From the IMG/VR virus record IMGVR_UViG_3300050821_006652: a stretch of DNA of 64,000 bases. One strand, written 5' to 3'. The DNA is from an uncultured virus (IMG/VR IMGVR_UViG_3300050821_006652). Taxonomy: Duplodnaviria > Heunggongvirae > Uroviricota > Caudoviricetes. Below are positions 2,560 to 63,546 of the stretch, one piece after another; position 1 is the stretch's first letter; each line of letters opens with the position of its first letter. The translations under genes were made by a program, and so were the position numbers. The notes under the pieces are model-generated. The model worked only from the letters and a program-made list of their open reading frames with translations, ran no database searches and was not told the DNA's origin.

Positions 2560-3399
2560 ATGAAAACCGAATTCATGCCCAGCCCACCCAAGAACTGGCG
2601 CGACCTTGAGCCGCATGAACTATCCAGCATCAGCGACTTTGGGGCCGGGATCGATCAAGACGCCGCCATCGCTTTCATGCGCATCAACGGCTACGACGAC
2701 AACGAACCGATCATCACCTTCGAGGGGAAAATCCTGGACGGACGGCACAAGAAATTTTGGGCTATCGAATCAGGCTGCACCCCGACATTCAAGCGGTTCG
2801 TCGGCACCTACGATGAAGCGAAGGCTCTCGTCTTGAAGAAAATCCACCGGCAACATCTCAATACCAGCCAGCGGGCTACCGTGGCGGCGAGGCTGGCGAA
2901 TTTGAAACGAGACACAACGGATAGCAAAATGGGGGGTAAATTTACCCCTAAATCGGAGAGTTCAAATATCTCCGATTTGACGCCACAAGAGGAAGCGGCG
3001 AAGATCATGAACGTCTCACCAAGCGCGGTCAAGCAAGCTGCCAAAGTGGAAGCGAATGGCGTTCCCGAACTTAAAGATGCCGTGGCGCAAGGCGACATTT
3101 CCGTATCCGATGCGGCCAAAGCAAGCGACGAACCTCCCAAGGTCCAGCAAGCCGCCGTCAAAGCGGTGAAAACCGGGAAAGCATCGACGGCGACCGCCGC
3201 CGTACACCAACGAAAAAAGAAAACAGGTTCCCCCACCTTCGATGACCGGCCAGCCGAAAAACTGATCGGCCAACTGACACGGTTCTTCGATGCCCGCGCC
3301 AACACCTACGGCAAAGGTCCAAAACATTCCAAGTGCATCGAGGCGATGGAAAAGGTATTGGCAGCCTGGCAACAGTGGCAAGCGGAGACAAACAAATGA
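2560..3399 (+). CDS. ParB-like N-terminal domain DNA-binding protein
   Basis: PIITFEGKILDGRH, HRQHLNTSQRA, HTH-like EEAAKIMNVSPSAVKQA. Confidence 0.7.
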   Translation: MKTEFMPSPPKNWRDLEPHELSSISDFGAGIDQDAAIAFMRINGYDDNEPIITFEGKILDGRHKKFWAIESGCTPTFKRFVGTYDEAKALVLKKIHRQHLNTSQRATVAARLANLKRDTTDSKMGGKFTPKSESSNISDLTPQEEAAKIMNVSPSAVKQAAKVEANGVPELKDAVAQGDISVSDAAKASDEPPKVQQAAVKAVKTGKASTATAAVHQRKKKTGSPTFDDRPAEKLIGQLTRFFDARANTYGKGPKHSKCIEAMEKVLAAWQQWQAETNK

Positions 3400-14257: not shown

Positions 14258-15949
14258 CTAAAGCTGGACCTCTTCCATGCGAACGTGCCCGCCCTGCGCT
14301 TGCTTGAGCAAGATCATGTCAATGAACTTGTTGGCCTGTGCCAGGAGTTGCCGCAGGTACGGCGACCGCTGCATCGCTTCGAGCGTGGCGAAAGCCCGGT
14401 CCACGTCCGCAATCTCCTGCGCGATCGGCAGCACGGGCGGCGGGTTGACCGGGGGAGGGGGTGGCGGAGGCGGTGGAGGCGGCTTCGTGCCCGTGGGTGC
14501 CCCCAGCGCCGCCGCCAGAATCTTCGAGAAGTCCGGCGAACCCAGCCCGGTCGGATAGTCATATCCAGGCCCGGCACTGTACTGTCCGTTCGTCCCCACC
14601 GTCACATCGTTGCAAGCATGGGGATTGGCGTACAAGAGGGCGTGGAGGTCGGCAATCGGCGGTTTGCCAGCGGCGGCGAGGGCTTGGTTCACCAGAGCGA
14701 TCCCGCCCGCCCACATCGGGGAAGCCCCGGAAGTCCCGCCCACGGTTCCCGCCGATGTCGCATACCCGGTCCCAGGATCACCAGGAGCAGATACGTCACA
14801 CACCCCGCGCGTCGTGCCAGCCGCAAAGCCGGTCTGGTAGTCGGGCTTGGGCCAGAACTCGCTGGGTGCCCCGCCCGTCGCCCCACCGCCAGAGGTCTGG
14901 CCACCCCACGCCATCTCGCCAGGCCCAGCACCACGAAGGCCGCCCACGCCTACCACGGCTGGGCCAGAAGCCGGGAAATCTCCGTGCGGCTTGCCGTCGC
15001 CAACGCCATCATCGCTGCCGTTATCGCCAGCAGCCGCGTGCATTGGGCAGGGCGGATTGTTCGCCTTCCCCTGTGCCGCAATGCCGTTCATGGTTTGCAT
15101 GGCTTGCTGGGTCCACGATGGCTCTGGCGAGCCCCAAGATGTGCTGGAAACAACCGACGTGCAACCTGCCGGAAGCGGGTCATTAACGATATGGGACCAC
15201 CCATCCGCGAAGCCGGCGTCTGAGTTGGGAGCCATAAATACTTGGATATGCGCCCCAGGAGCCATACCGCCCGACACGCAAATGTCCAAGGCCGTTTCCA
15301 CATCCGCGCCGTTCGGGTCTGCCCCAGGAACAAAGTTCGCACCGTCCACGCTGACGTACTCAATCGTCGGAGTTGCCAGCCCAATCCCAGAAAAGAACGC
15401 AGCAATGTCCGCGTCCAACGGTCGCCCGCCGAGGGCAATCACCCGGATGCAGCACCCCGTCCCATCCACACCAGGCGGCGCGTTGTAGACCTGCGCGAGT
15501 TGAGGCCCCGTGTACCCGCCCATCCCCGGCACGCGCGGCATCACCAGAGGCTTGCGATAGTGCGGCTTCGCTATCGGCCCATCGTCCAGGCCCAGCACCG
15601 ACTGGATCGACCCCGCCAGTTCTTCGGGGATGTGAATCGGGCCGTCCCTGCCACGGTGTTTCGTGCCGTTCGTGTGCTGCACGGCCTTGAGTTGCACCAT
15701 GAACGCCTTTTCCATCGCGTCCACCGTGCCCGTGAGTTGGACATAACCCGTGTGATTTTCGTCGATAGTCAGGCCCTTGGCGACGGCGAATGCGCGAATG
15801 GCTGCCAGGGAATCGGATGATCTGGAATCGAATTTTCTTAGGTATACACTGACCGTCAGAACTTGGGATTTATCGGCGGGAGCCATGATCCTTGCCCCGA
15901 ATGGCATCGACTTGGCAGAGCCGGGGAGAACGACGTAATTTCCAGCCAT
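14258..15949 (-). CDS. S53 family serine-carboxyl peptidase (sedolisin/kumamolisin-like) with pro-domain
   Basis: pro-domain (GTVDAMEKAF...SVLGLDD), ETALD (Glu/Asp), STSWG, AAAGDNG, GGTSGA (Ser), NDVTVG..GYDYPTGLGSP; poly-Pro linker plus helical tail. Confidence 0.92.
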   Translation of the reverse strand: MAGNYVVLPGSAKSMPFGARIMAPADKSQVLTVSVYLRKFDSRSSDSLAAIRAFAVAKGLTIDENHTGYVQLTGTVDAMEKAFMVQLKAVQHTNGTKHRGRDGPIHIPEELAGSIQSVLGLDDGPIAKPHYRKPLVMPRVPGMGGYTGPQLAQVYNAPPGVDGTGCCIRVIALGGRPLDADIAAFFSGIGLATPTIEYVSVDGANFVPGADPNGADVETALDICVSGGMAPGAHIQVFMAPNSDAGFADGWSHIVNDPLPAGCTSVVSSTSWGSPEPSWTQQAMQTMNGIAAQGKANNPPCPMHAAAGDNGSDDGVGDGKPHGDFPASGPAVVGVGGLRGAGPGEMAWGGQTSGGGATGGAPSEFWPKPDYQTGFAAGTTRGVCDVSAPGDPGTGYATSAGTVGGTSGASPMWAGGIALVNQALAAAGKPPIADLHALLYANPHACNDVTVGTNGQYSAGPGYDYPTGLGSPDFSKILAAALGAPTGTKPPPPPPPPPPPVNPPPVLPIAQEIADVDRAFATLEAMQRSPYLRQLLAQANKFIDMILLKQAQGGHVRMEEVQL

Positions 15950-16064
15950 GAAATTGTCCTTTAGGTTCAAGGTTTTCGATCCGAAATAAAGCAACTCGCT
16001 CGCGGCCATTACATCGCCGCGCAGCGTTTTCAGGACAGCGAGAATGTAATCGTTGAAGTCCATC

Positions 16065-16532
16065 CTAGGCCGGTTTGTTCTCGGCAATCAGGGCTGGCAT
16101 TTCCTGCATCGTCACATTTGCTTGGACCGTGGCGATTGCCCACTCCACCGACACGCCAACGTGACTGCGCGGCTGGATACCGGCATCACGCATCGCCTGC
16201 CGACGATGATCCTTCTGAAGAATGGCTTGTTTCCGATTGGGCCGCGTCAGAAATTCATGGTAATCAGCCGGGGTAGGCGTCGGGATCGGCTTCGGTGCCC
16301 CGCAGATGCCCCCCGTGCCGCCCAGCAAGCCGCCCAGGAGTTGCTGAAAGATTTGCAGGATGATCGGGCCGAGACTGCCCAAGATGCCGCCCAAGCCCCC
16401 CGTGCCGCCCAGGAGGGCCATCGCCTCATCACGCTTCTTGAGCATCATGGGGCCAGCGGTGGGGGCCGGTAGAGGCGGGGAGATAGCGGGTTCGCTCATG
16501 GGAGGTTCCTTTGCTTTTGAGTTGGGGGTCAT
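16065..16532 (-). CDS. hypothetical protein with Gly/Leu-rich hydrophobic segment
   Basis: LGSLGPIILQIFQQLLGGLLG. Confidence 0.6.
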   Translation of the reverse strand: MTPNSKAKEPPMSEPAISPPLPAPTAGPMMLKKRDEAMALLGGTGGLGGILGSLGPIILQIFQQLLGGLLGGTGGICGAPKPIPTPTPADYHEFLTRPNRKQAILQKDHRRQAMRDAGIQPRSHVGVSVEWAIATVQANVTMQEMPALIAENKPA

Positions 16533-17093: not shown

Positions 17094-17284
17094 CTTGCTT
17101 CCTCTGGCCAGATTCTAACCGCTGACGGGGGAAATAACAAACATTTCGGGGTTGCTTTTTCAGAAACCACGCATAGAATTTCGTTGTCTTGCCAAAGACC
17201 AAAACAACAGAACCACGCCGATCTTTACCCGCGCATCGTTCTTTGGCAAGACACTTGCCGGGTAGGATCGGCGCGTCGAGGTCA

Positions 17285-18342: not shown

Positions 18343-18773
18343 CAGGAAAAATGAAAATGGCCTTCGATGTTGGCGGGGTGCTGAGCAAGTACCCGCATAT
18401 CTTCAAGCCGCTCTTGAAGGCCCTGCATTGCGTTGCCGACGTTGAAGTTTGGATTATCAGCGACATGCACCCAGAGCAAAAGATAATCGACATGCTCCAA
18501 TTAAACGGCGTATCGTTCCTGATGCACCACGTTCGCTCCGCCGATTACAAAACCCACGGCGAAATGTGCAAGGCGGTCTTGTGCAAGGAACTCGGCATCG
18601 ACCTGTTGATAGACGACTTCCCCGGCTACGTCGCCAGCGGGAATCATGTTCGGCTGCTGGTCATGCCGCACCCAATGGAACCGTACTACCACGATGAATG
18701 GAAAACGGACGGTAGCGAAGGGTCTTTCGGGCGGCGTGTGCGACCAACCAAAGGCGACCACGTTTGGGAGTGA
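18339..18773 (+). CDS. HAD-superfamily-like protein (degenerate motif I)
   Basis: AFDVGGVL, WIIS, K...IDLLIDD. Confidence 0.6.
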   Translation: MTGKMKMAFDVGGVLSKYPHIFKPLLKALHCVADVEVWIISDMHPEQKIIDMLQLNGVSFLMHHVRSADYKTHGEMCKAVLCKELGIDLLIDDFPGYVASGNHVRLLVMPHPMEPYYHDEWKTDGSEGSFGRRVRPTKGDHVWE

Positions 18774-18775
18774 CA

Positions 18776-19099
18776 ATGACAGCCTACGAACGCAAGAAGG
18801 TCCGCGAGGCCATTCGATTGCTGAACAAGCCGATGAGCAAGGACCATTGGGGACCGGCGATATTCGCCCTCCAAGACGCCCTACGCGGCCAGCGGAAAGC
18901 CCCACGCAAGCGGAAGGCCGTCGCCAACTTGACGGCAAAAGATGTGCGGTCAATGTTCGCGGCGATGGATTTATCGGAAGATATGCGGCAAGCGAAGATC
19001 CCGAACTGCCAAGTATGCGGTCGGAAACTAAATTCGGAAGACGAACAAGAAATGGGAATGTGCGAAGCGTGTGCTAATTTGGAGTGCGAAAGACAATGA
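18776..19099 (+). CDS. hypothetical protein with C-terminal Zn finger
   Basis: CQVCGRKL...CEAC. Confidence 0.55.
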   Translation: MTAYERKKVREAIRLLNKPMSKDHWGPAIFALQDALRGQRKAPRKRKAVANLTAKDVRSMFAAMDLSEDMRQAKIPNCQVCGRKLNSEDEQEMGMCEACANLECERQ

Positions 19100-19404
19100 A
19101 AAAACCCGTTGACGAACTATGCGAGCGCTGTGGCGGTTGGGTCTGGCATAGGCTGGACCCGTGCAACTGCAAGCCTAACGCGCTCGCAACCACGATGGAC
19201 AATACCTTCTCCGGCCGGTTGAAAAAGACGCGGCTATCGCAAAACCTCAGCTTGGAGCAGGTTGCTCGCCGGGCCGGATTGTCCAAAACAGGCTACTGGC
19301 AAATCGAGAATGACCAGTCCGAACCGATGGCGAATACGCTAGTCGGACTGTCCAATGCGCTTGGGGTGTCCATCGACTGGCTCTTGACCGGCAAAGCCAA
19401 ATGA
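19096..19404 (+). CDS. XRE-family helix-turn-helix transcriptional regulator
   Basis: RLKKTRLSQNLSLEQVARRAGLSKTGYWQIEN...LGVSIDWLLTG. Confidence 0.9.
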   Translation: MKKPVDELCERCGGWVWHRLDPCNCKPNALATTMDNTFSGRLKKTRLSQNLSLEQVARRAGLSKTGYWQIENDQSEPMANTLVGLSNALGVSIDWLLTGKAK

Positions 19405-19604
19405 ACATCACCGGGCGCTATCTCGGCCACTTCGCGGACCACGGCTTTCTGTACGCCTACACCTGCCCATGCGGGCGCACCTTCCGCAGCGGTGCCCCGG
19501 AGTTGTCCGCCCCGGCTCTCTGCCACGCTTGCTATACCGGGAACCAAGACGCGCTGGCGAAGGCGGCACGGCGGGAGAAGCGGCGCAGGAAACGGCGCGG
19601 ATGA
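19401..19604 (+). CDS. small Zn-finger hypothetical protein
   Basis: CPCG...CHAC. Confidence 0.55.
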   Translation: MNITGRYLGHFADHGFLYAYTCPCGRTFRSGAPELSAPALCHACYTGNQDALAKAARREKRRRKRRG

Positions 19605-19607
19605 GGC

Positions 19608-19636
19608 TTGCTTTTTCTGGGGAGATGGTTTACAGT
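19608..19636 (+). promoter_or_regulatory. sigma70-like promoter
   Basis: TTGCTT-17 nt-TACAGT. Confidence 0.6.
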
Positions 19637-19642
19637 GGGAAA

Positions 19643-20210
19643 CGAAAAGAGCCAGGTCTTGGGAAACCCAGCTCTTTTCGCTGAAATTTAGCTGACAGAA
19701 ACATCTTACGACTTTCGCCCCATTTCTGTCAAGCTACCCCGATAATCGAAAAAGATAGCCGCACGAATCTGATAACTATGTCCGTGTGCGGCCAGGAAAC
19801 CTGGGAACCCACCAGCGTCGAAGGGCTGGGATGCCTTTTCCTTTAAGTGGTGCATCTCACGTTGATCCAGGGCCAGTAGGGAAGGCTCTGGGCTGCCAGG
19901 TGCGAAACCTCTGGCACGGGCGCAGGCGGCATAGCTCGCGGATTGAACCTGTGAGCCGATGACCAATCAACCGGGGATTACTGTGGAGTGGCAAGACGCC
20001 GCTGGGGGCGCTCGCTGTAGAAGAGGATATTACGCAATCCTCAATAATCGGATGCGGGTCGTGGGGGATAGAAGGACACCGCAGGAACTTCCTGGGGTGC
20101 TGACGGCGACCAAAAATAAACCGGGGGCGATGACTATAGGGGAAAAGTACGCGCGTCGTTGTGTGTGACAGCGTACCAGCAAGGCACTTTGTCCCACAGT
20201 CTCTTGAGAG
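19643..20210 (+). ncRNA. putative large structured RNA or leader (alternatively an origin region)
   Basis: more than 10 consecutive inverted repeats, no convincing ORF, promoter directly upstream. Confidence 0.5.
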
Positions 20211-20216
20211 GGTGGT

Positions 20217-20636
20217 ATGAAGCGAAAGAAGAATAAAACCCGCTTCGGTAAGGCCAAGCACACGCCGCGAAACTTCACCTACGCGGGCAAGGCCCTACGC
20301 GAAGGAAGCATCACCGAGGCCGAGGTAGAGAGGTTTCGCCAACCGCTCAAGAACTTTCACCCGAAGCCGACGCAATCCCGCTTCGCGCCGAAGAGGGTGT
20401 GGCAGACCTTGAACGAATACCAGTGGCAGCGGGTTGAGGAATGGGTGTACGTTTCGGTGAATGGGTTCGTGCTGTACGATAACCGGCTGGAGAGGCTGGT
20501 GGACCAGGTGACGATAGAGGCGATGATGAGGCTGGCAGAAGACTCGCTATCGTGGGGATTTGATGGGGGGATGGAGATTGATTGGGAAGAGGTCCGGGAC
20601 AGTTACCGGTGCGAACTTGGGAGAACAAGCCGATGA
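20217..20636 (+). CDS. hypothetical protein
   Basis: GAGGG RBS, ATGA coupling downstream. Confidence 0.55.
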   Translation: MKRKKNKTRFGKAKHTPRNFTYAGKALREGSITEAEVERFRQPLKNFHPKPTQSRFAPKRVWQTLNEYQWQRVEEWVYVSVNGFVLYDNRLERLVDQVTIEAMMRLAEDSLSWGFDGGMEIDWEEVRDSYRCELGRTSR

Positions 20637-20788
20637 AGAGTGACAAAGCCAATCCGATGACCAAGAGGCAAATGAAAAAGTTTGCCGAACTCGGAATACC
20701 GCTCGGTGAATACACGATCCACCAAGCGGCCAAGCTCATCAATGCGGCTTTGGTCAAGCGTGGTCTAGGCGGGAAGAGGTCAGGCTAG
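20633..20788 (+). CDS. hypothetical protein
   Basis: ATGA coupling. Confidence 0.45.
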   Translation: MKSDKANPMTKRQMKKFAELGIPLGEYTIHQAAKLINAALVKRGLGGKRSG

Positions 20789-20816
20789 AATACCGGCAGG
20801 AACTTGGGAGGATGCG

Positions 20817-21224
20817 ATGATGCGACTGCGACAGCGACGAGCCCCCAGGAGCGTGACAAAGCTGAAGGGGAAGCGGTACGTTATCAGACATTCCTGGCAG
20901 ATAGTCGAGTTGGCAAATTCTGACGGAAATGAAAAAGTGCTGGGAGAGTATTTGTCCGAGGGGCAGGCGAACCAAGCCTTGCAAAAAGTCCTCGTTACTC
21001 TCGCTGGCGCGGTCGATGGCGAAGTCGTCAACTTTCCTGAAACTCCAGGGCTCATTGGCGATCAGGCTGCTATCAGTTTGGGAAGGAGAGGAGGATTGAA
21101 GGGTGGACCACTCCGCGCGGAAAAGCTCGGAAAGGAAAAGGTTGTCGAAATCGCAAAGAAAGCGGCAAAAGCAAGATGGGACAAATATCGTGCTGCTCAA
21201 GTTTCTATTGAGGCCATGCCATGA
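20817..21224 (+). CDS. hypothetical protein with C-terminal GRxGGxKGG...RA.KL...EIAKKAA..RW motif
   Basis: GGAGG RBS; basic motif shared with 33320-33475. Confidence 0.6.
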   Translation: MMRLRQRRAPRSVTKLKGKRYVIRHSWQIVELANSDGNEKVLGEYLSEGQANQALQKVLVTLAGAVDGEVVNFPETPGLIGDQAAISLGRRGGLKGGPLRAEKLGKEKVVEIAKKAAKARWDKYRAAQVSIEAMP

Positions 21225-24153: not shown

Positions 24154-25056
24154 TCATTGCCCCAAAAACCTGCCGTACACCGCAAGCCGCTGCACCGGGA
24201 GCTGGCCCGCCGAGCCGTCTGGGTTGCGCGGCATCCGGCTCTTGTCATCGTGCGTGAAGATGCGATTCAGCACGATGGCCTTCTGCTCGGCGTTGAATTT
24301 CGGCAGGTCTTCGACGTTGAAGTTCGTCTTGTTCTTCTCGCCCTTCGGTCCGCCGTGACAGGCGGCGCAGTCGGCCCGCACTACCGGCATGAATGCTTCC
24401 ACGAAGCTGCCCGTGGCCACAGGCGGCGGCGACACCACGGGCGGCGCGGTGCCGTAGTCGATCTTGCCCTGGAAGGTGGTCTTCTTGGGCGGGTTCAGGT
24501 TCTCCCTGATCACTTTGCCGATAGCCTGGATCTCAGCCACTCTTGAAGCCCCGGCGCTGGCCTGCCCGACCAGTTCGGAGAAGCCAGTCATGCCTTGCTG
24601 GTGGAGGGCGGCGGCGTTGTCCGTGTGTCTCGCCGCCTGTTGAAAGAGGGTGTTTAGGTCCAGCGAGCCGTAGTAGTCATTGGCGACTTGATTGACGCTG
24701 TAGCCGTAGAGCGTGCTGCCCTGGAATCCGAAGTTGCCGTATTGCAGCGAGTTGCCGCCGTAGGCCAGCCCCCCGGCACCGATGGCTTGCAGGTAGGCCG
24801 CATGATCGGCTTTCGCGGCATAGTAGCGGGCCACTTCGACCTTCCAATCCGCGCTGTAGGCAGGGATGGCGATTGCCGGGAGTACGGCGACCGGCGGCGC
24901 GACGTAGACGGGCGGGTAGTAGGTTGGGTAGTAGGTCGGGTAGTTGTAGGACACCGAGCAGTCATGGCGGGACCGGAAGCGGCGACCGAACAGGGCCAGG
25001 GCGTCCCCGACCAGTACCAAGGCGAGCAAGACGGCGATGAAGGCAAGTCGTTTCAT
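24154..25056 (-). CDS. secreted protein with C-terminal c-type cytochrome domain (planctomycete-like)
   Basis: signal peptide MKRLAFIAVLLALVLVGDALA; CAACH plus distal RMP Met ligand. Confidence 0.75.
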   Translation of the reverse strand: MKRLAFIAVLLALVLVGDALALFGRRFRSRHDCSVSYNYPTYYPTYYPPVYVAPPVAVLPAIAIPAYSADWKVEVARYYAAKADHAAYLQAIGAGGLAYGGNSLQYGNFGFQGSTLYGYSVNQVANDYYGSLDLNTLFQQAARHTDNAAALHQQGMTGFSELVGQASAGASRVAEIQAIGKVIRENLNPPKKTTFQGKIDYGTAPPVVSPPPVATGSFVEAFMPVVRADCAACHGGPKGEKNKTNFNVEDLPKFNAEQKAIVLNRIFTHDDKSRMPRNPDGSAGQLPVQRLAVYGRFLGQ

Positions 25057-25146
25057 GGGTATTCCTTCCTTGAGTGAGTTGATTTCATCCCCAAATTCTA
25101 CACCGTAGATGGGTGAAAACGCAAGGGATGCGGGGGCCATCGGCAT

Positions 25147-25389
25147 CTACCGAGGGGCAAGGAAAGAGAGAACGCAACAGGCGGTGGTCTCGCTAGCAAG
25201 GGCAGGCACGGTTCTCTCGTTACCCGACACCATCGAGTTCATGTCCTGCCCGCTGCTGCCGTCGATGTCCACGTCGTCTTCGGTCAGGCGGTGGACCTCG
25301 CTGCACTTGACGCAGGTGAGCGTGTCCGGCAGGGCCTTGAGCCGCGCCGCTGGTATCGGCTTGCCGCATGATTGGCAGAGCGTCTTCAT
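25147..25389 (-). CDS. DksA/TraR C4-type zinc finger protein
   Basis: CQSCGKPIPAARLKALPDTLTCVKC. Confidence 0.85.
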   Translation of the reverse strand: MKTLCQSCGKPIPAARLKALPDTLTCVKCSEVHRLTEDDVDIDGSSGQDMNSMVSGNERTVPALASETTACCVLSFLAPR

Positions 25390-27218
25390 TTCTTCTGCAT
25401 CCTTGCGAGGTTCTTTTGGACGCGCCCCGCGATGAACGAGTAGGTCAAGCTGAAGTCGAACCGATCCGGCTGATCCTCTTCCGCTTCTGAAAACAGACTT
25501 TCGATCCGAATATCCACCGGGATGATCGGCCCGACCGATTCGTTCGGGTCCGGGGCCAACAGCTTTCCCAGCACGTCAATAGCCTTCTCTTTCGGCACGT
25601 CAAGGCCGAGTTCCTGCAAAGCGCGGTGGGCGTTAATCGTCGGATACCAATAGTCACTGTAAATATCCACGACTTTCTGAGAAGCAAAGCGCACGACTTC
25701 CGTTTGCGAACCGCCGTTTTCCCACGGCCCGGTAGCCTGCAACACGGCTCGCGCATAGGAATTTCTGGCCAGTATTAGCGTCTCATCGGGACTACCGGCA
25801 TACCAGTCCGCCAGCCGCTGCACGTCCACGCCCTTGGCGAAGTCTCCGAAAATATCCACACGCCGTTTGCGTAGGGCGGTCACGGAATTTCCGAATGGCA
25901 TCCACCCGTCCGTTTTCGACTTGACGCCGTGGCACCAGATGCACGAAATGGCCGGTTCTAGTTCCGTCGAATGACCACCCGGAACGAGATTATTGCGGGC
26001 GACATTATCCGGGGCTTTTTCTTGCAGTTTGTTTTCGCCGTTGAAGAGCAAGAACAGATGCATCCCATTAGGTTTGCCGATGATCGCCTCTCGCGCCCGG
26101 AATTTGAACTTGACCAAGTTCATAAGTGGATGCTGGCCTGGGTCAATATCTTCCTTGCCAATATCGCTGGTGATGAAGGCGAAGGAAGTCAAACCGCCGC
26201 GCGTCGCCAAAGTTGGAAACCATTCAAATTGCCTGGGCCGCTTCGTGATCGACGAACGAGATATGGCCGAACGCTGGTCCGAGGGCAATTTGTCGAAAAT
26301 CTTCCGGTCCACTCCGAACGATTGGAGGATGCGGGCTTCGTCGGTTTGTTTGTCCTTGCCGTTCCCCTTCACGCCGACGAAATCGTAATACAGTCCGCCA
26401 AAGACCGTTCGGAAAGAAGCGTTGTCGCCCTGGATAGCCGAGAGGGCCCGCGACTGAAAATAGCGGAAGTTGACAATCGGGGCACTCGACCGCGTGAGGG
26501 CCTGCAATCCAGCATAGTTCGTCGGGTTCAGGTGCTGGCCGTTGAGTCGCAGAACATCGACCTTGCTCACGTCCACCGGCTTCAAACTCAGCACTTCCTC
26601 GACCTCGCGGGAATCGTAGGTCCACTTCTGGGTGAGTTTGACGCGCTGGCCGTCCTTGTTCTCCCCTATGTATGGTTCGCAATTCACCAGTTGCCAGTTC
26701 GTTTTTTCGATGCGCTTGCGTACCACGCGCTGCTCGACCAACCCAATCGCCGGGCCAAGCAACTTCAAGCTATCTTGGGTGATGAGCAAGTTGAAGTGTG
26801 GGTCGAAGGCGAGTTTTTCCCAGACGTTGAGGTATTCCGGCAAATCATCAAGCGGACAGTAATGTCGCAGGTCAACGCGCACCAATTGCCAGTTGGCCAA
26901 TGACACGGGTAGTCGTGGCCGCGCCGCCCGCGATACCGTGTTGAGCGTGAAACTGGTAGCCTGCACGTCCACCTTGAGGCCAGTTGGAACCCAGATGTAG
27001 CGGAGGAAGGGGGCAATCAGGGCGTTGGCTTGGGCATCGGCGTAGGCGGCTGCTACGGCGGCATCGGGAGAGGCCAGGGACAGGATGGGAGCGGGCTTGT
27101 CTTTCGGTTGGACCTTGACCGGGGTTTTGGGTGGTGGGAAGCGGAAGTCATCCGGGAAGTATTGGGCGTGGCCCAGAGCGGCGAGGGCCAGGAGCAAGAG
27201 AAGTGAGCATCCTTTCAT
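25386..27218 (-). CDS. large secreted protein with CxxCH heme-binding motif
   Basis: signal peptide MKGCSLLLLLALAALGHA; SCIWCHG. Confidence 0.7.
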   Translation of the reverse strand: MKGCSLLLLLALAALGHAQYFPDDFRFPPPKTPVKVQPKDKPAPILSLASPDAAVAAAYADAQANALIAPFLRYIWVPTGLKVDVQATSFTLNTVSRAARPRLPVSLANWQLVRVDLRHYCPLDDLPEYLNVWEKLAFDPHFNLLITQDSLKLLGPAIGLVEQRVVRKRIEKTNWQLVNCEPYIGENKDGQRVKLTQKWTYDSREVEEVLSLKPVDVSKVDVLRLNGQHLNPTNYAGLQALTRSSAPIVNFRYFQSRALSAIQGDNASFRTVFGGLYYDFVGVKGNGKDKQTDEARILQSFGVDRKIFDKLPSDQRSAISRSSITKRPRQFEWFPTLATRGGLTSFAFITSDIGKEDIDPGQHPLMNLVKFKFRAREAIIGKPNGMHLFLLFNGENKLQEKAPDNVARNNLVPGGHSTELEPAISCIWCHGVKSKTDGWMPFGNSVTALRKRRVDIFGDFAKGVDVQRLADWYAGSPDETLILARNSYARAVLQATGPWENGGSQTEVVRFASQKVVDIYSDYWYPTINAHRALQELGLDVPKEKAIDVLGKLLAPDPNESVGPIIPVDIRIESLFSEAEEDQPDRFDFSLTYSFIAGRVQKNLARMQKK

Positions 27219-28270: not shown

Positions 28271-28458
28271 CACTTCCCGCCTTCCGTTGGCCTGATCCTC
28301 AACAGCCCGCACCGCTGGCATACCTCGACCTCTACTTCGCCGCATACGATTTTCTCTTCCACGACTGACGAAGAAATGTAAACGTATGCGCGTTCGACCA
28401 TGAACATGTCGCTTGGCTTCCAATCGCAATCATGCGTGGGTATGCGTGGTTCGCTCAT
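28270..28458 (-). CDS. small Zn-ribbon hypothetical protein
   Basis: HDCDW...CQRCG. Confidence 0.5.
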   Translation of the reverse strand: MSEPRIPTHDCDWKPSDMFMVERAYVYISSSVVEEKIVCGEVEVEVCQRCGLLRIRPTEGGK

Positions 28459-28469
28459 GGCTTGGCCTC

Positions 28470-28518
28470 AAGAAACACCAGCGGACCGCTCTCCCATCAG
28501 ACAAGCGGCCCGCTGGTA
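28470..28518 (-). terminator. terminator-like hairpin
   Basis: ACCAGCGGGCCGCT/AGCGGTCCGCTGGT followed by GTTTCTT. Confidence 0.6.
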
Positions 28519-28560
28519 CGTGGCTCCGCCTTACGAAGCGGAACTTCCCCCATCAGTGAA

Positions 28561-28688
28561 CGCCTTGGCTGGCCAGCATGGTAGTTGCGGCGGCGAATCG
28601 AACGCCACGACCTTCGCAACCTTCAAGGCACCCGTCTAGCCGAGTGCCGAGACGCTGGCCAGCGAAACCATGCCAGCCAGCCAAGGCG
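28561..28688 (-). ncRNA. tRNA-like element enclosed by a 22-bp inverted repeat
   Basis: IR 28561-28582/28667-28688; inner GTGGCG-TTCGATT-CGCCGC T-arm then CGCAACT-A-CCA. Confidence 0.55.
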
Positions 28689-28694
28689 AATCCA

Positions 28695-29093
28695 TCAATC
28701 TTTCGCCGGTACATCCAACTCCACTCGCGGAGCGGGCGGCACTTCCACTTGCGGGATCGCCAGCGACTTGACGTAATCCATGAAGCGGATTTGTTCCGGT
28801 GTGTACGGGACATGATCGCCGGTTGTCCGATTGACTTCTTGCGCGAAAATGATCTTCGTGGTGCCGTCACTTCGTCGGATGGTCAGCCACATTAACCCAT
28901 CAGGCTTATTCGATTTGTCGATAGCCACGCCGGGCGGCAAGATCACTTCGACAGCCACTTTCTTCGTGGCCGGGGCCACAGGCGCGGGAGCCACGGTCTG
29001 CGTGGCGCCACCACACTTGCGCTTGCCGCGTCTGCCGCCACGGGCGTCAGTGTCGGCCACCAGCAAGAGAGCCAGGAACAGTGTGAACTTCAT
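28695..29093 (-). CDS. secreted hypothetical protein
   Basis: signal peptide, AAGGAGG RBS. Confidence 0.65.
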   Translation of the reverse strand: MKFTLFLALLLVADTDARGGRRGKRKCGGATQTVAPAPVAPATKKVAVEVILPPGVAIDKSNKPDGLMWLTIRRSDGTTKIIFAQEVNRTTGDHVPYTPEQIRFMDYVKSLAIPQVEVPPAPRVELDVPAKD

Positions 29094-29509
29094 CGGAAAC
29101 CTCCTTGAGAAAAAAGGGCGAAACTATTGATTCATCATCATCGGCGACTACCGCCTGCATCGCGTCCGCATCGGCCAGACGCTCGGCATGAATGGATTCC
29201 AGCATGGTGAGTAATGCGGTTGATTTGTCGTCATCAACAACAAGTTCGTTATCCCACCATTCGACAAACTTGCTGGCCAGCGATGGTTTGCAACCGATAC
29301 TGGACTTGGCGATGATCTTGGCGGCGTTGGCGCAAGAGGACCGCATGCACCGTATCAGTGTCCCGCCGTAATTGGCTCCGTGGGCAAGCGGGCACAACGA
29401 ATCGTCGCCTACCCACTCGCCGTGCATGGTTGCGCAGGTCCGCGATAAGGAATAGCAGATTCAGGTTTTGGAACCGGGAGAAAATATCCCGGAACTTTTC
29501 AGCATTCAT
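29047..29509 (-). pseudogene. hypothetical gene apparently split by a frameshift near 29430
   Basis: coupled start at 29509 (MNAEKF...DLRN) drifts into Arg-rich junk, while another frame gives HGEWVGDDSLCPLAHG...FVEWWD. Confidence 0.4.
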
Positions 29510-29733
29510 CGGCCTACCTCCATCACCTTCGCAACCACTTGTTCCAGCGACACCAGCCCGCGCAGTTCGTCATGCGGCAGCCGCACCCCCAGCAGCTTTT
29601 CCAGTCGGAAGGCCAGGTCTTGCAGGTCCAGCGAATCGCGGCCCAGCAGCATCGTGTCGGGATCGTCCACGGCTGCCCCGTCCATCAGGGCCACGGATTC
29701 GAGGATCGTGCTGCGGAGAACGGCGGCGGTCAT
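29506..29733 (-). CDS. acyl carrier protein-like (phosphopantetheine-binding)
   Basis: 75 aa; LGRDSLD then DLAFRLEKLLGVRLPHDEL...SLEQVV; GGAGG RBS. Confidence 0.75.
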   Translation of the reverse strand: MTAAVLRSTILESVALMDGAAVDDPDTMLLGRDSLDLQDLAFRLEKLLGVRLPHDELRGLVSLEQVVAKVMEVGR

Positions 29734-33323: not shown

Positions 33324-33475
33324 TTCTTTTTCTTTGAGTAATTCGTCCACCGTTTCTTGGCGGCACTCCTAGCAATCTCTTTCCTGCGCTTAGCCGTGAG
33401 TTTGCAAGCGCGAGCATTGCCGCCCTTGCGACCCATTGCTCTCGCCGCCGACTTCGCTAAATCGGTTTCGTTCAT
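33320..33475 (-). CDS. 51-aa basic protein (MGRKGGNARACKLTAKRRKEIARSAAKKRW), absent from the ORF track
   Basis: translated by hand; ATGA coupling to the next gene; promoter directly upstream. Confidence 0.75.
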   Translation of the reverse strand: MNETDLAKSAARAMGRKGGNARACKLTAKRRKEIARSAAKKRWTNYSKKKK

Positions 33476-33481
33476 AAAGGA

Positions 33482-33557: not shown

Positions 33558-34028
33558 CTACTTCGACATGCTTTTCACGGAATCCTCAACCTTGTCGATT
33601 GCCGGTTTGTTGCCGCTCCACTCTTCCAGCTTGCGGTAGTAGGTGACGCACTGCTCCATCTTTTTGGCGAAGCACTCCACGCGGAAGTCTTTCTTGGTGA
33701 TGTAAGCCTGAGCCCCCGCGTCCAGCGCCGCGGTGATGATGTCGGTTTCCTCCACCACGCTCACCACCAGCGCCGCGGTCGAATGGCTGTGCTCGTTGAT
33801 CCACCGCACCACGTCGAGCCCGGCGTCAATCGTGCCGCCGTTGTGCCCGTTGGGAATCTTCAGGTCCACGATAGCCACGGCAAACTTGCGCTTGGCCAGT
33901 TCCGCCAAGGCATCGTGCTTGGTTGCCACTTTGACGAACGTGAACTCAAGCGAGGTCAGGCAATGGCCCAAGAGGTTCGCCCATTCGTGGTTGTCCTCGA
34001 CCACCAGCACGTCATGGTTGCTGTTCAT
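33558..34028 (-). CDS. stand-alone response regulator receiver (CheY-like) protein
   Basis: VLVVEDN, AIVDLKIP (phospho-Asp), GLDVV, LVVS, GAQAYITK. Confidence 0.88.
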   Translation of the reverse strand: MNSNHDVLVVEDNHEWANLLGHCLTSLEFTFVKVATKHDALAELAKRKFAVAIVDLKIPNGHNGGTIDAGLDVVRWINEHSHSTAALVVSVVEETDIITAALDAGAQAYITKKDFRVECFAKKMEQCVTYYRKLEEWSGNKPAIDKVEDSVKSMSK

Positions 34029-61161: not shown

Positions 61162-63546
61162 TCACTTCGCCAATGCCCTGATCGTTGACAGCGTGCCCGT
61201 CCCCACTTCACGCCTCAAATCGGGATACCGGTCGAGCACGTTCACAAGGTGCCGGTACAACGCCACCGCCTCTGGCATGTTGATCCGCTTCAACCGCTCC
61301 AAGAACTGCGTCAAATCCAGCGAATACAATTCCGGCGACACCAGATGCCGGTACAGGATGCCACCCTCTCCGAACGGCACGTCCCGCGCGTGTACCGCCA
61401 GGGCCATCAACGCCCGGCTGTAGTGCATCGTTTGTTGCTCGGCCGGATGCCCGGTGCCGCTCCCGACGATCCACTTCTTGAATAGTTCAATCGGCATCGC
61501 CTTGATGCCGCCGAATCCTTTCCAGCCCGGCGAGTAATTCGCATGGTAAGCATCCTTCGCCTCTTCCTCAGAAACGAAGCCGATCATGCACTTGTGCTCA
61601 TCGAAACTACCATCCGCTTTCATTTGGTCGATGATGAAGACGAGTTCACTTTCAGGAGTCGGCCCAAGGAACACATCGACGTGATCTCCGTCGGCATCGC
61701 TCTCGGTACTTTTGATGTAACCGTAGTGATTGGCCATCGTCACCGACCACTCTTTGCCGGCCTTGCTCTTGCCGCTCCGCGTGCTGCCCTTGGGATTCTC
61801 GATGGAGATATTCAGGCCATGCAAGGTGACGTGGCCCTTGCGATAGTTGCCGGACTTCTTTTGTTCTTCGCTGGGATTCGTTTCGGTATCCTTCGCAGCG
61901 GCGGCAATGGCATCGGCGTAATCGCGGCTGTAATTCTGCAAGGCCGGTTCCTCTTCCTCTTCGGCAGCGTCGGGAGGGTTTTGTGAACCTTGTGAACCAT
62001 CTGGTTTTTCATTGCCAGGTGGGAAGCCGGGTTTCTGCCCCGGCATCGGCTCCGGCCCCTTCTTCAGCACCGCGTCACCCTCCATCGGCTTCGTGAACCC
62101 GATAGCGTCGATAACCTCATCCTCAAGCAGGCCAGCCCCCATCTCCCACGCCGCCTTCGCCGCCTGCATCTTGTTCTCAGCCTTCTGCCGCTCCACCCCA
62201 AACCGGAAATACGCCGGGATCTCCTCATACTCCGGGTAGGTGTACTTCTTGATCGTGTTCAATAGGTCGAACGTCACCGACTCGGCCAAGCTGAACGAAT
62301 CCGACTCGGTAATATCGTTCTTCGTCTCCGAGGCCAACTCCGCCCAAGCCGAACCGGAAATGAGGCCACCGCCCTTGCCCTTCGTGCCGCCGCTCATGGT
62401 CTGCCCGACGATGTACCGCTCGTGCCACTTCTCCACATACTCGATCAGCCGCAGGATCAACTCCGGACCAGTGCCCCCAGGCTCGCGCCAGTCCATATCC
62501 TCCTGCACACCGCCCCGCTCGTCCGTGTATCGCGGAATGAGGATATTCGTGCGGTGGATGTTGGCCTTCGCCGCCGCCTCCACCGCCTTCTGACTCGCCG
62601 GATTGCCCGCGTTGTAATACCACACCCGCACCCCGATACCAGCCCGCTCCACCCAGTCCGTCACGTTGCTGATCCACTCCCTCTTGAGATAGTCCAGGAA
62701 GTAGATGAACGACCTGATGCCGCAGCCGTGAATCGAATCCGCCTCCATCGGTGAGTAAAAGTCCGCGTCCTGAATCCCCTCCATGAACTCGTGGATCATG
62801 AACTGCTCGCGCATCCACCCGCGCAGAGGCGCGGCCCGCCCCAGCGTGGCCCACTCTTGCGGCAGTCCCGGAGGTAACTGGTTGTCGTAAGCCCCCGTCA
62901 CCAGCACGTAGGGCTCGCCATCGTAGGAGTGCCCGATCTTATCGCCGTTGATTGACATGTGCCCGTCATCGTGGTCTTCACGCTTGACGATCAGGCACTT
63001 CCGCCGCTGCTTTGGCTTCGACATCGGGTTGTCTTTGAGCATCGGATTCATCATGACGCGCAGCTTCGAAGCTGGGGCGGGCATATCCATCTCTTTCCAC
63101 GCGAACCGGAATTGCGTCCCCATCCTCCCATACCAGACCGCATCCGACGCGCACCACAAGAGCTTGCGGAACCGAGAGATCATCCCCACGATCTTCGTCA
63201 GCCCTTCCTTGAGCGCCATCTCATGCGGGTCTTTCTCGTTCTCCACTTCGATGTGCCAGGGCAGGATTGTCACGGCCCGACGTCGCTCGTTGATGAGGCA
63301 CATGAGCGACGAATCCCGCCGCATGGCCATCGCATCCTCACGCGAGTGCCGCATGGCCGTGTCGTGCTTCTCGTGCCAGAACTTCCGCCAGGCTGAACCC
63401 ACCAGCGCGGAGAATTGGATTACCTTGGGGACCGCATAGCCGTCGAACTTGCCGCCGAGGGGGAAGGGATTGCCCGAGGGGTCGAGGATGGTGCCCTGCG
63501 GGTATTGCGAGGCCGTGCCGTTCATTGAGAAGCGAGATGGTGCCAT
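61162..63546 (-). CDS. portal protein (Mu gp29/DUF935-like) fused to a C-terminal inorganic pyrophosphatase-like domain
   Basis: DAVWYG, G.G, W..WVER.G, IVGQT portal motifs; GNYRKGH...IENPKGS.RSG...HYGYI...DGDHVDVFLGP...FDEHKCMIGF. Confidence 0.8.
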   Translation of the reverse strand: MAPSRFSMNGTASQYPQGTILDPSGNPFPLGGKFDGYAVPKVIQFSALVGSAWRKFWHEKHDTAMRHSREDAMAMRRDSSLMCLINERRRAVTILPWHIEVENEKDPHEMALKEGLTKIVGMISRFRKLLWCASDAVWYGRMGTQFRFAWKEMDMPAPASKLRVMMNPMLKDNPMSKPKQRRKCLIVKREDHDDGHMSINGDKIGHSYDGEPYVLVTGAYDNQLPPGLPQEWATLGRAAPLRGWMREQFMIHEFMEGIQDADFYSPMEADSIHGCGIRSFIYFLDYLKREWISNVTDWVERAGIGVRVWYYNAGNPASQKAVEAAAKANIHRTNILIPRYTDERGGVQEDMDWREPGGTGPELILRLIEYVEKWHERYIVGQTMSGGTKGKGGGLISGSAWAELASETKNDITESDSFSLAESVTFDLLNTIKKYTYPEYEEIPAYFRFGVERQKAENKMQAAKAAWEMGAGLLEDEVIDAIGFTKPMEGDAVLKKGPEPMPGQKPGFPPGNEKPDGSQGSQNPPDAAEEEEEPALQNYSRDYADAIAAAAKDTETNPSEEQKKSGNYRKGHVTLHGLNISIENPKGSTRSGKSKAGKEWSVTMANHYGYIKSTESDADGDHVDVFLGPTPESELVFIIDQMKADGSFDEHKCMIGFVSEEEAKDAYHANYSPGWKGFGGIKAMPIELFKKWIVGSGTGHPAEQQTMHYSRALMALAVHARDVPFGEGGILYRHLVSPELYSLDLTQFLERLKRINMPEAVALYRHLVNVLDRYPDLRREVGTGTLSTIRALAK

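Follow-up and report, generated by a model that had tools for sequence, protein, structure and literature searches.

A hairpin-rich noncoding gap with facing promoter-like sites in a tailed phage genome: a candidate structured transcript and a predicted antisense RNA

INTRODUCTION

Antisense RNAs of phages include C4 (P1/P7), CI (P4), OOP (lambda), and sar (P22). The locus described here, a gap between genes of a tailed phage, resembles them in that a small antisense RNA is predicted inside an early-type operon of small genes. It differs from them in that no Rfam match to any such family was obtained (E up to 10) and in that the predicted small RNA would consist of one hairpin plus a short tail at its 5' end. 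In ColE1, replication is primed by a long RNA of about 555 nt under antisense control (RNA II/RNA I).

Counter-transcribed RNAs of 48 to 87 nt have been described over plasmid rep leaders (PMC5703833). Among the antisense-controlled rep leaders described there are those with pT181 RNAI, pMV158 RNAII, pSK41 RNAI, and pIP501 RNAIII, the last together with the XRE-family protein CopR (PMC5703833). The gap resembles these leaders in having facing promoter-like sites, consensus-like in sequence, and a predicted counter-transcribed RNA of this size class on a putative structured leader; as in pIP501, an HTH_XRE gene is located upstream. It differs in that the putative leader would be about 570 nt long and the overlap would lie at its extreme 5' end, with about 520 nt separating it from the first start codon. 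In addition, the downstream gene encodes no known Rep, and neither a terminator/antiterminator nor a ribosome-binding site (RBS) switch was found in the region.

Large folded RNAs of bacteria and phages are rare, and the known ones are ribozymes or RNA-only cages of unknown job (ROOL and GOLLD). ROOL has an average length of 581 nt (PMC5737381), and ROOL and GOLLD are often found near tRNAs (PMC12286853), a location that is typical and not obligatory. Like these RNAs, the candidate transcript of the gap is phage-borne and noncoding, with many predicted helices and a length of about 570 to 580 nt, as in ROOL (PMC5737381, PMC12286853, and PMC12990946). Unlike them, it has no match to their Rfam models, no tRNA neighbors, and no supported pseudoknots, and the antisense partner proposed here is not described for ROOL or GOLLD in the available parts of the same three sources. 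Group II introns of the circularly permuted (CP) type are defined, in the accessible part of PMC8637638, by a D5 with an AGC triad, five base pairs, a UN bulge, and an upper stem, by a D6 with a bulged A, and by a GGGCG-type 5' splice site followed by D1 to D4, in a total of about 900 nt. The gap resembles this architecture in that an AGC-initiated stem comes after two 5' hairpins. It differs from it in that the upper stem and the bulge of D5, the whole of D6, and the splice-site words are missing and in being about 300 nt shorter (PMC8637638).

RESULTS

Gene neighborhood and coding potential of the gap

The window, that is, the whole stretch of 64,000 nucleotides analyzed here, is part of a tailed phage genome and carries genes for a portal protein, a DUF5131 protein, two helicases, and a DNA methylase. 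Within a plus-strand run of small genes, a gap of 612 bp was found at 19605-20216. The initial annotation had described it as the largest gap of the genome, located next to an XRE regulator. A crude gene caller left two bigger gaps elsewhere in the window (634 and 660 bp); one of these lies partly in the DUF5131 gene and the other has ORFs of 131 and 111 aa. The gap at 19605-20216 is therefore the largest one without a credible gene, and in this sense the description holds. The XRE gene (HTH_3 family match; plus strand, ending at 19404) is indeed positioned upstream, in the stretch 19084-19604, but a Cys-rich ORF of 67 aa (19401-19604, plus strand) stands between it and the gap.

Among nine ORFs in or beside the gap, only this 67-aa upstream ORF is contained in the protein collection. 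Three small genes follow downstream (20217-21224; ORFs of 139, 51, and about 125 aa). The first (20217-20636, plus strand) encodes a 139-aa protein with a K/R-rich N terminus. One relative besides itself was found among 1.84 billion representatives, and comparison with Pfam and PHROG families and with known folds gave no match. The protein encoded at 20817-21224 (plus strand), in the operon behind the gap, and a protein encoded at about 33340-33480 (minus strand) have a similar basic C-terminal motif of the GxKGG...ARW type; peptides of this type are sometimes labelled RNA-binding. A 140-aa gene at 18351-18773 (plus strand), 830 bp upstream of the gap, belongs to an unnamed family with 313 relatives, which occurs in phages of 35 to >500 kb; no Pfam or NCBIfam match was obtained for it.

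The internal ORFs of the gap had neither homologs nor gene calls. The best coding candidate is an ORF of 69 codons (19959-20168, plus strand) for which no homolog was found and whose exact sequence is absent from the protein collection. Its codon score was -0.002, compared with -0.015 at the 90th percentile of shadow frames and -0.010 at the 5th percentile for real genes. Because the score lies near both the shadow-frame and the real-gene limits, this ORF is, as judged from codon usage, probably not a gene.

A plus-strand promoter-like site and its sister copy

The promoter named in the initial annotation, TTGCTT-17-TACAGT, is present. This site, designated P+ (19608-19636, plus strand), has TTGCTT at 19608 and TACAGT at 19631-19636 and agrees with the consensus at 7/12 positions; transcription from it would start near 19643. 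The 64-kb window contains exactly two copies of the 10-mer TTGCTTTTTC, at 19608 and at 17152. The copy at 17152 is followed by TAGAAT and precedes the upstream operon, within a divergent gap, and both copies head plus-strand units. P+ is credible because its 10-mer has exactly one other copy and this copy lies where the upstream operon has its promoter-like start.

Behind the sister promoter lies a leader of about 90 nt (promoter and leader, 17152-17284, plus strand), in which two overlapping stems closely precede the first start codon. These stems, 17185-17198/17240-17253 (a perfect 14 bp) and 17216-17232/17257-17273, are probably mutually exclusive and could possibly form a two-state switch or an operator pair. 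Comparison of the sister leader with Rfam revealed weak matches only (RNA-OUT, 19.5 bits, E 0.15), and no relative was found in 78 loci. A 9-mer, TGGCAAGAC, is common to positions 19989-19997 of the gap and the two arms (17186-17194 and 17244-17252) of the inverted repeat at 17185-17253; this sharing is probably due to chance.

Minus-strand promoter-like site and terminator-like hairpin

Analysis of the minus strand revealed a promoter-like site and a terminator-like hairpin that the initial annotation had overlooked and that supply most of the folding signal of the gap. The promoter scan identified P- (TTGACA-18-TAAGAT, 10/12; 19732-19703, minus strand), which lies inside the inverted repeat of hairpin 2. 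One site of this type was found, versus 1.0 expected by chance in 3 kb. The 64-kb window contains three 10/12 sites, and the two besides P- are positioned directly ahead of genes. A transcript from P- would start near 19696.

Hairpin 1 (19641-19682, minus strand) is predicted to have 19 bp, including four G-U pairs, with a folding energy of -26 kcal/mol. It has the form of an A-tract, a stem, and a T-tract and follows right after the last gene of an operon. Read by eye, it is terminator-like on the minus strand because a G+C core is followed by UUUUCGUUU (a U tract); the terminator scan did not list this minus-strand form among its sites. The core of hairpin 1 folds with -15.7 kcal/mol on the minus strand versus -8.7 kcal/mol on the plus strand, where mismatches break it, and the hairpin should therefore stop minus-strand RNA better than plus-strand RNA. 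P- facing this hairpin implies a small RNA of about 55 nt (19696-19641, minus strand), which would be antisense to the first approximately 55 nt of the long transcript and complementary to its 5' end.

Hairpin 2 is formed by the inverted repeat TGACAGAAA-21-TTTCTGTCA (19692-19732, both strands) with 9 bp on the plus strand and 12 bp on the minus strand; in the minus form the inner stem is capped by GAAA. The G-U pairs and the GAAA loop thus favor a minus-strand RNA that P- would not itself transcribe. Hairpin 2 may be an operator-like inverted repeat over P-, or a longer minus-strand RNA may exist. G-U pairs had been ascribed to several stems on the plus strand. From 19758 onward G-U pairs favor the plus strand; for hairpins 1 and 2, the better pairing is that of the minus strand (19 and 12 bp).

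Predicted elements of the plus-strand body

A candidate long structured transcript of about 570 nt (19643-20216, plus strand; both ends predicted) would contain two clusters of hairpins. In the 5' cluster (19758-19976, plus strand), seven hairpins are predicted up to 19956, namely 19758-19792, 19792-19804, 19812-19829, 19827-19859, 19866-19892, 19894-19916, and 19934-19956, and a possible closing helix is predicted at 19861-19866/19966-19971. In the 3' cluster (19980-20200, plus strand), the predicted hairpins are 19987-20003, 20023-20042, 20057-20111, and 20147-20176, with a possible closing helix at 19980-19986/20194-20200. Hairpin 19827-19859 has a predicted C/U loop of 17 nt, and GUGCGAAAC at 19900-19908, in hairpin 19894-19916, is a T-loop-like motif. 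A 12-nt motif is present in two plus-strand copies, AATCAACCGGGG (19965-19976) and AATAAACCGGGG (20115-20126), each just 3' of a predicted stem, and its pattern occurs at only these two places in the window. Six runs of at least four G residues lie between 19973 and 20142. Candidate long-range, pseudoknot-like helices of 11 bp (19835-19845/20137-20147) and 7 bp (19715-19721/20124-20130) were noted as well; pseudoknots were rejected, the loop-to-distal pairings being not above those of shuffled sequences (p 0.45 to 0.57).

No terminator was listed by the scan between the 3' end of the region and the ORF at 20217, and a leader and a stand-alone RNA are therefore indistinguishable. Weak plus-strand terminator-like sites were listed early in the region, at 19659-19671 and 19812-19829 (two versus 3.8 expected by chance in 3 kb). 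Antisense-triggered closure of the RBS of ORF 20217 was considered and rejected, since blocking 19643-19696 in silico gave no switch in equilibrium folding: the pair probability of this RBS was 0.07 in the free RNA and 0.00 in the blocked RNA, and it reached 0.87 only if the RNA began at 19733. Potential trans targets were also rejected. The 11-mer complements of the long RNA and of the small RNA numbered 29 versus about 17 and 3 versus about 1.4 expected under a uniform-base model, respectively, with no clustered target among them. The loop at 19835-19844, a candidate anti-RBS loop, is complementary to AAAGG and AAGGA, the commonest 5-mers upstream of called genes (18/92 and 16/92, respectively).

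Folding statistics

All 10 stem pairs quoted in the initial annotation were recovered at their places. Comparison of the folding energy with shuffles, which had been proposed as a check, gave z scores of -2.7 (plus strand) and -4.0 (minus strand) for 19640-20210, and none of 100 shuffles was as stable. Most of this signal comes from the first 96 bases (19640-19735; z -4.7 on the plus strand versus -6.9 on the minus strand). The remaining 475 bases, without the two 5' hairpins, had a minimum free energy (MFE) z of only -1.8 (plus) and -1.4 (minus).

A census of local stems was performed as a second measure, in which non-overlapping stems of at least 6 bp and at most -5 kcal/mol were counted and compared with 300 shuffles. 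The whole region yielded 11 hairpins on the plus strand versus 5.9+/-1.5 in shuffles, none of which reached 11. For 19733-20216, nine hairpins versus 5.4 were counted on the plus strand (3/300 shuffles; summed energy, 1/300), and the minus strand had no excess (4 versus 4.3). When the 220 tile-strands that make up the window were ranked, on a grid anchored at the flagged region and with 18 shuffles per tile, the plus-strand tile of the region came first (z -4.65); four other tiles, several of them probably coding, reached z values of -3.7 to -4.2. By the energies of 120-nt tiles, the region ranked third among 528 blocks. The positive control, one RNase P RNA, had an MFE z of -5.4, yet its stem census was 4 versus 1.9 (p 0.11). 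The two measures disagree on this control, and neither therefore settles the matter. These results indicate that the folding signal of the gap is real but moderate. As modeled here, the gap region is not one single fold, the strand preference switching between the 5' hairpins and the body.

Search for relatives

The Infernal/Rfam scan that had been recommended matched no family: the 64-kb window gave no match at the gathering score, and chance matches of 10 to 15 bits were the only ones in the region at E up to 10. A blastn search returned 36 phage records with E about 8, none of them a real match, and 72,556 plasmid records contained no match to the region at E 1. Scans of viral contigs with four motif patterns found 31, 11, 51, and 1 loci, and 0/94 extended beyond the motif.

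Related phages were sought through single-protein scans, and none was found. The capsid-like protein led to five viral loci of about 30 to 35% identity, and the records of four of them were used; the upstream 140-aa gene led to 24 viral loci, 37 metagenome loci, and 1 genome locus. Three single-sequence covariance models (R1, R2, and R3) were run on the loci of related phages. R1 gave two weak matches, at L040 with E 0.64 and at L136 with E 1.2e-4 for its own record; both lie in protein-coding DNA and were rejected. R2 matched 0/27 records and 0/37 loci, and the same result was obtained with R3. These blanks are weak and do not amount to absence, because the models rest on one sequence and are insensitive, the relatives are distant, and a known positive was lacking among them. 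L139, which alone matched in full, was 100% identical over 19,770 nt and hence added no variation. The ROOL model had no match anywhere in five records, controls included, and this blank is uninformative. No description of this RNA appeared among the papers listed by literature searches; a fragment could still be in the catalog of viral candidate RNAs PMC10690425, whose entries are 29 to 151 nt long in the part of the source available to us.

Other features of the window

A much more strongly folding cloverleaf element (z -7.3) was observed at 28440-28700 (minus strand), in the gap 28322-28694. A closing stem of 21 bp (28562-28687) surrounds three arms and is followed by two further hairpins. 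One arm has a tRNA-like GUUCGAUUC loop, which gives the element a C4/tRNA-like look. Comparison with Rfam gave no meaningful match. This element is a better noncoding RNA candidate than the flagged gap.

Several protein-coding regions are also of interest. A Mu-like portal protein is fused to an inorganic pyrophosphatase (InPase) domain at 61162-63546 (minus strand), and a sedolisin/kumamolisin-like protease with Pro-kuma_activ and Peptidase_S8 domains is encoded at 14258-16087 (minus strand). The region 24154-27215 (minus strand) encodes a cytochrome-c-like protein (weak Cytochrome_CBB3 match) and a DksA/TraR zinc finger. For the approximately 610-aa protein encoded there, most of the closest Atlas clusters are viral, and Planctomycete PSCyt1 clusters score 0.86; as a pointer to the host, this likeness to Planctomycete cytochrome-c domains (feature score, 0.86) is a lead only. 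An acyl-carrier-like protein (PP-binding; 29506-29733) and a stand-alone response-regulator receiver domain (33558-34028) are both encoded on the minus strand. Two A/T-rich palindromes at about 2930-3000, in an ORF of 279 aa (2560-3399), are accompanied by promoter-like sites on both strands.

DISCUSSION

A promoter-driven, hairpin-rich noncoding transcript of the plus strand is the best reading of 19733-20216, because the hairpin excess is strand-specific and the promoter motif is shared with the promoter-like site of the upstream operon. The initial annotation had proposed a promoter-driven structured RNA, and this part of its proposal stands. Its novel large noncoding RNA stays a candidate, since no relative and no 3' terminator ahead of ORF 20217 were found. 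The gap is a real, moderately significant noncoding feature, an orphan and a candidate functional RNA.

In the model that we propose, by analogy with the counter-transcribed RNAs on plasmid rep leaders and with phage early operons, the gap would consist of two overlapping, facing transcription units. P+ would drive a hairpin-rich noncoding RNA of about 570 nt, which would extend up to and probably into the three small genes at 20217-21224. P-, the strong site, would drive an RNA of about 55 nt that would end at the terminator hairpin and be fully complementary to the 5' end of the long RNA. The short RNA would most likely lower the amount of the long transcript, either through pairing at the 5' end of the latter, with cleavage or early termination as the outcome, or through promoter collision. 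In this way the structured RNA would be gated together with the downstream genes. What was observed is the set of sequence elements with their statistics; the making of the two RNAs, their ends, their pairing, and its effect are deduced from them. A structured transcript of about 570 nt, leader or stand-alone, whose 5' end is gated by a cis-antisense small RNA is a tentative interpretation, to which we give slightly less than an even chance.

This interpretation is favored by the position of P- about 55 nt ahead of a hairpin of -26 kcal/mol with a U tract on its own strand and by the strand switch, in which 19640-19735 folds better on the minus strand and the hairpin excess of 19733-20216 is confined to the plus strand. 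Against it, the body has an MFE z of -1.8 versus -5.4 for the RNase P control and -7.3 for the other element of the same phage, and the stem census did not flag the RNase P control. In addition, chance would yield one promoter scoring like P- in 3 kb, P- lies inside hairpin 2, the minus-strand form of which it would not itself transcribe, the downstream RBS did not switch when the first 54 nt were blocked in silico, no relative was found, and the codon score of the 69-codon ORF is borderline.

The gap might instead be ordinary intergenic DNA, composed of a promoter, a terminator that works in both directions, an inverted repeat resembling an operator, and a gene that is small or decaying (the 69-codon ORF), its other stems having arisen by chance in G-rich sequence. 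The two-way terminator form of hairpin 1 right after the last gene of an operon agrees with this view, as do the low z score of the body (-1.8), the similar stem-census scores of probably coding tiles, the loop-to-distal pairings no better than shuffles (p 0.45), and the ambiguous codon score of the ORF. Such DNA would not be expected to rank at the top of 220 tile-strands with a plus-only hairpin excess, nor to extend for 612 bp without a called gene, when the other gaps checked are shorter or ORF-bearing and the 69-codon ORF has no homolog, and we consider this explanation somewhat unlikely. A stand-alone ornate RNA of the ROOL/GOLLD kind, with a compact and possibly self-assembling fold in which hairpins 1 and 2 would be the first helices and P- would be incidental, is a slightly more doubtful alternative. 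Its length near the ROOL average, the phage location, the T-loop-like hairpin, and the candidate long-range helices of 11 bp and 7 bp speak for it; however, no Rfam match was obtained even at E 10, the long-range helices are not above chance, the 64-kb window contains 0 tRNA or tmRNA genes, and the 5' hairpins favor the minus strand.

The replication origin suggested by the initial annotation would, as with RNA II/RNA I of ColE1, use the long RNA as a primer and be controlled by the antisense RNA. Layout and length are similar to those of ColE1, and six G runs lie in the 3' half, but the 72,556 plasmid records contained no match, the site has no GC-skew turn and no iteron array, and the helicase genes are >12 kb away. 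Nothing found supported an origin, ColE1-type origins are not known from such phages, and this explanation is highly improbable. We assign an equally small chance to a degenerate ribozyme or mobile-element RNA, that is, a circularly permuted group II intron or a HEARO/omega-RNA remnant. The two 5' hairpins are followed by a stem (19757-19792; AGCCGCA...UGCGGC) like the lower D5 stem of the CP group II alignment, and the region contains a few short HEARO-like words. Comparison by eye with part of that alignment revealed neither an upper D5 stem nor a UN bulge; a segment like D6 and a UGGGCGAC splice-site word were also missing, and the region has about 570 nt versus about 900 nt, so the intron was rejected. 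Rfam gave no group II or HEARO match, the flanking ORFs matched no IscB/HNH family, and neither a reverse transcriptase nor an IscB/TnpB family was present among the proteins scanned (a subset of the ORFs).

The antisense-gated transcript, a candidate that rests on a single sequence, also allows a more far-reaching interpretation, which we regard as decidedly unlikely: the gap could encode a large compact phage RNA of about 570 nt that would be the first of a family not yet described, with an antisense RNA of 55 nt dedicated to setting its level. Such an RNA would contain the T-loop and two repeated stem-linker-CCGGGG modules, and its C/U loop might pair either with the 3' purine tract of the same RNA or with the AAAGGA-type RBSs of the phage. 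If this were true, the locus would encode an ornate RNA with a built-in RNA off-switch, and a new large RNA with its own antisense regulator would help to learn when RNAs of this kind are required. Should the transcript be no more than a long leader, it would still be an unusually long antisense-gated one, from a poorly sampled group of phages.
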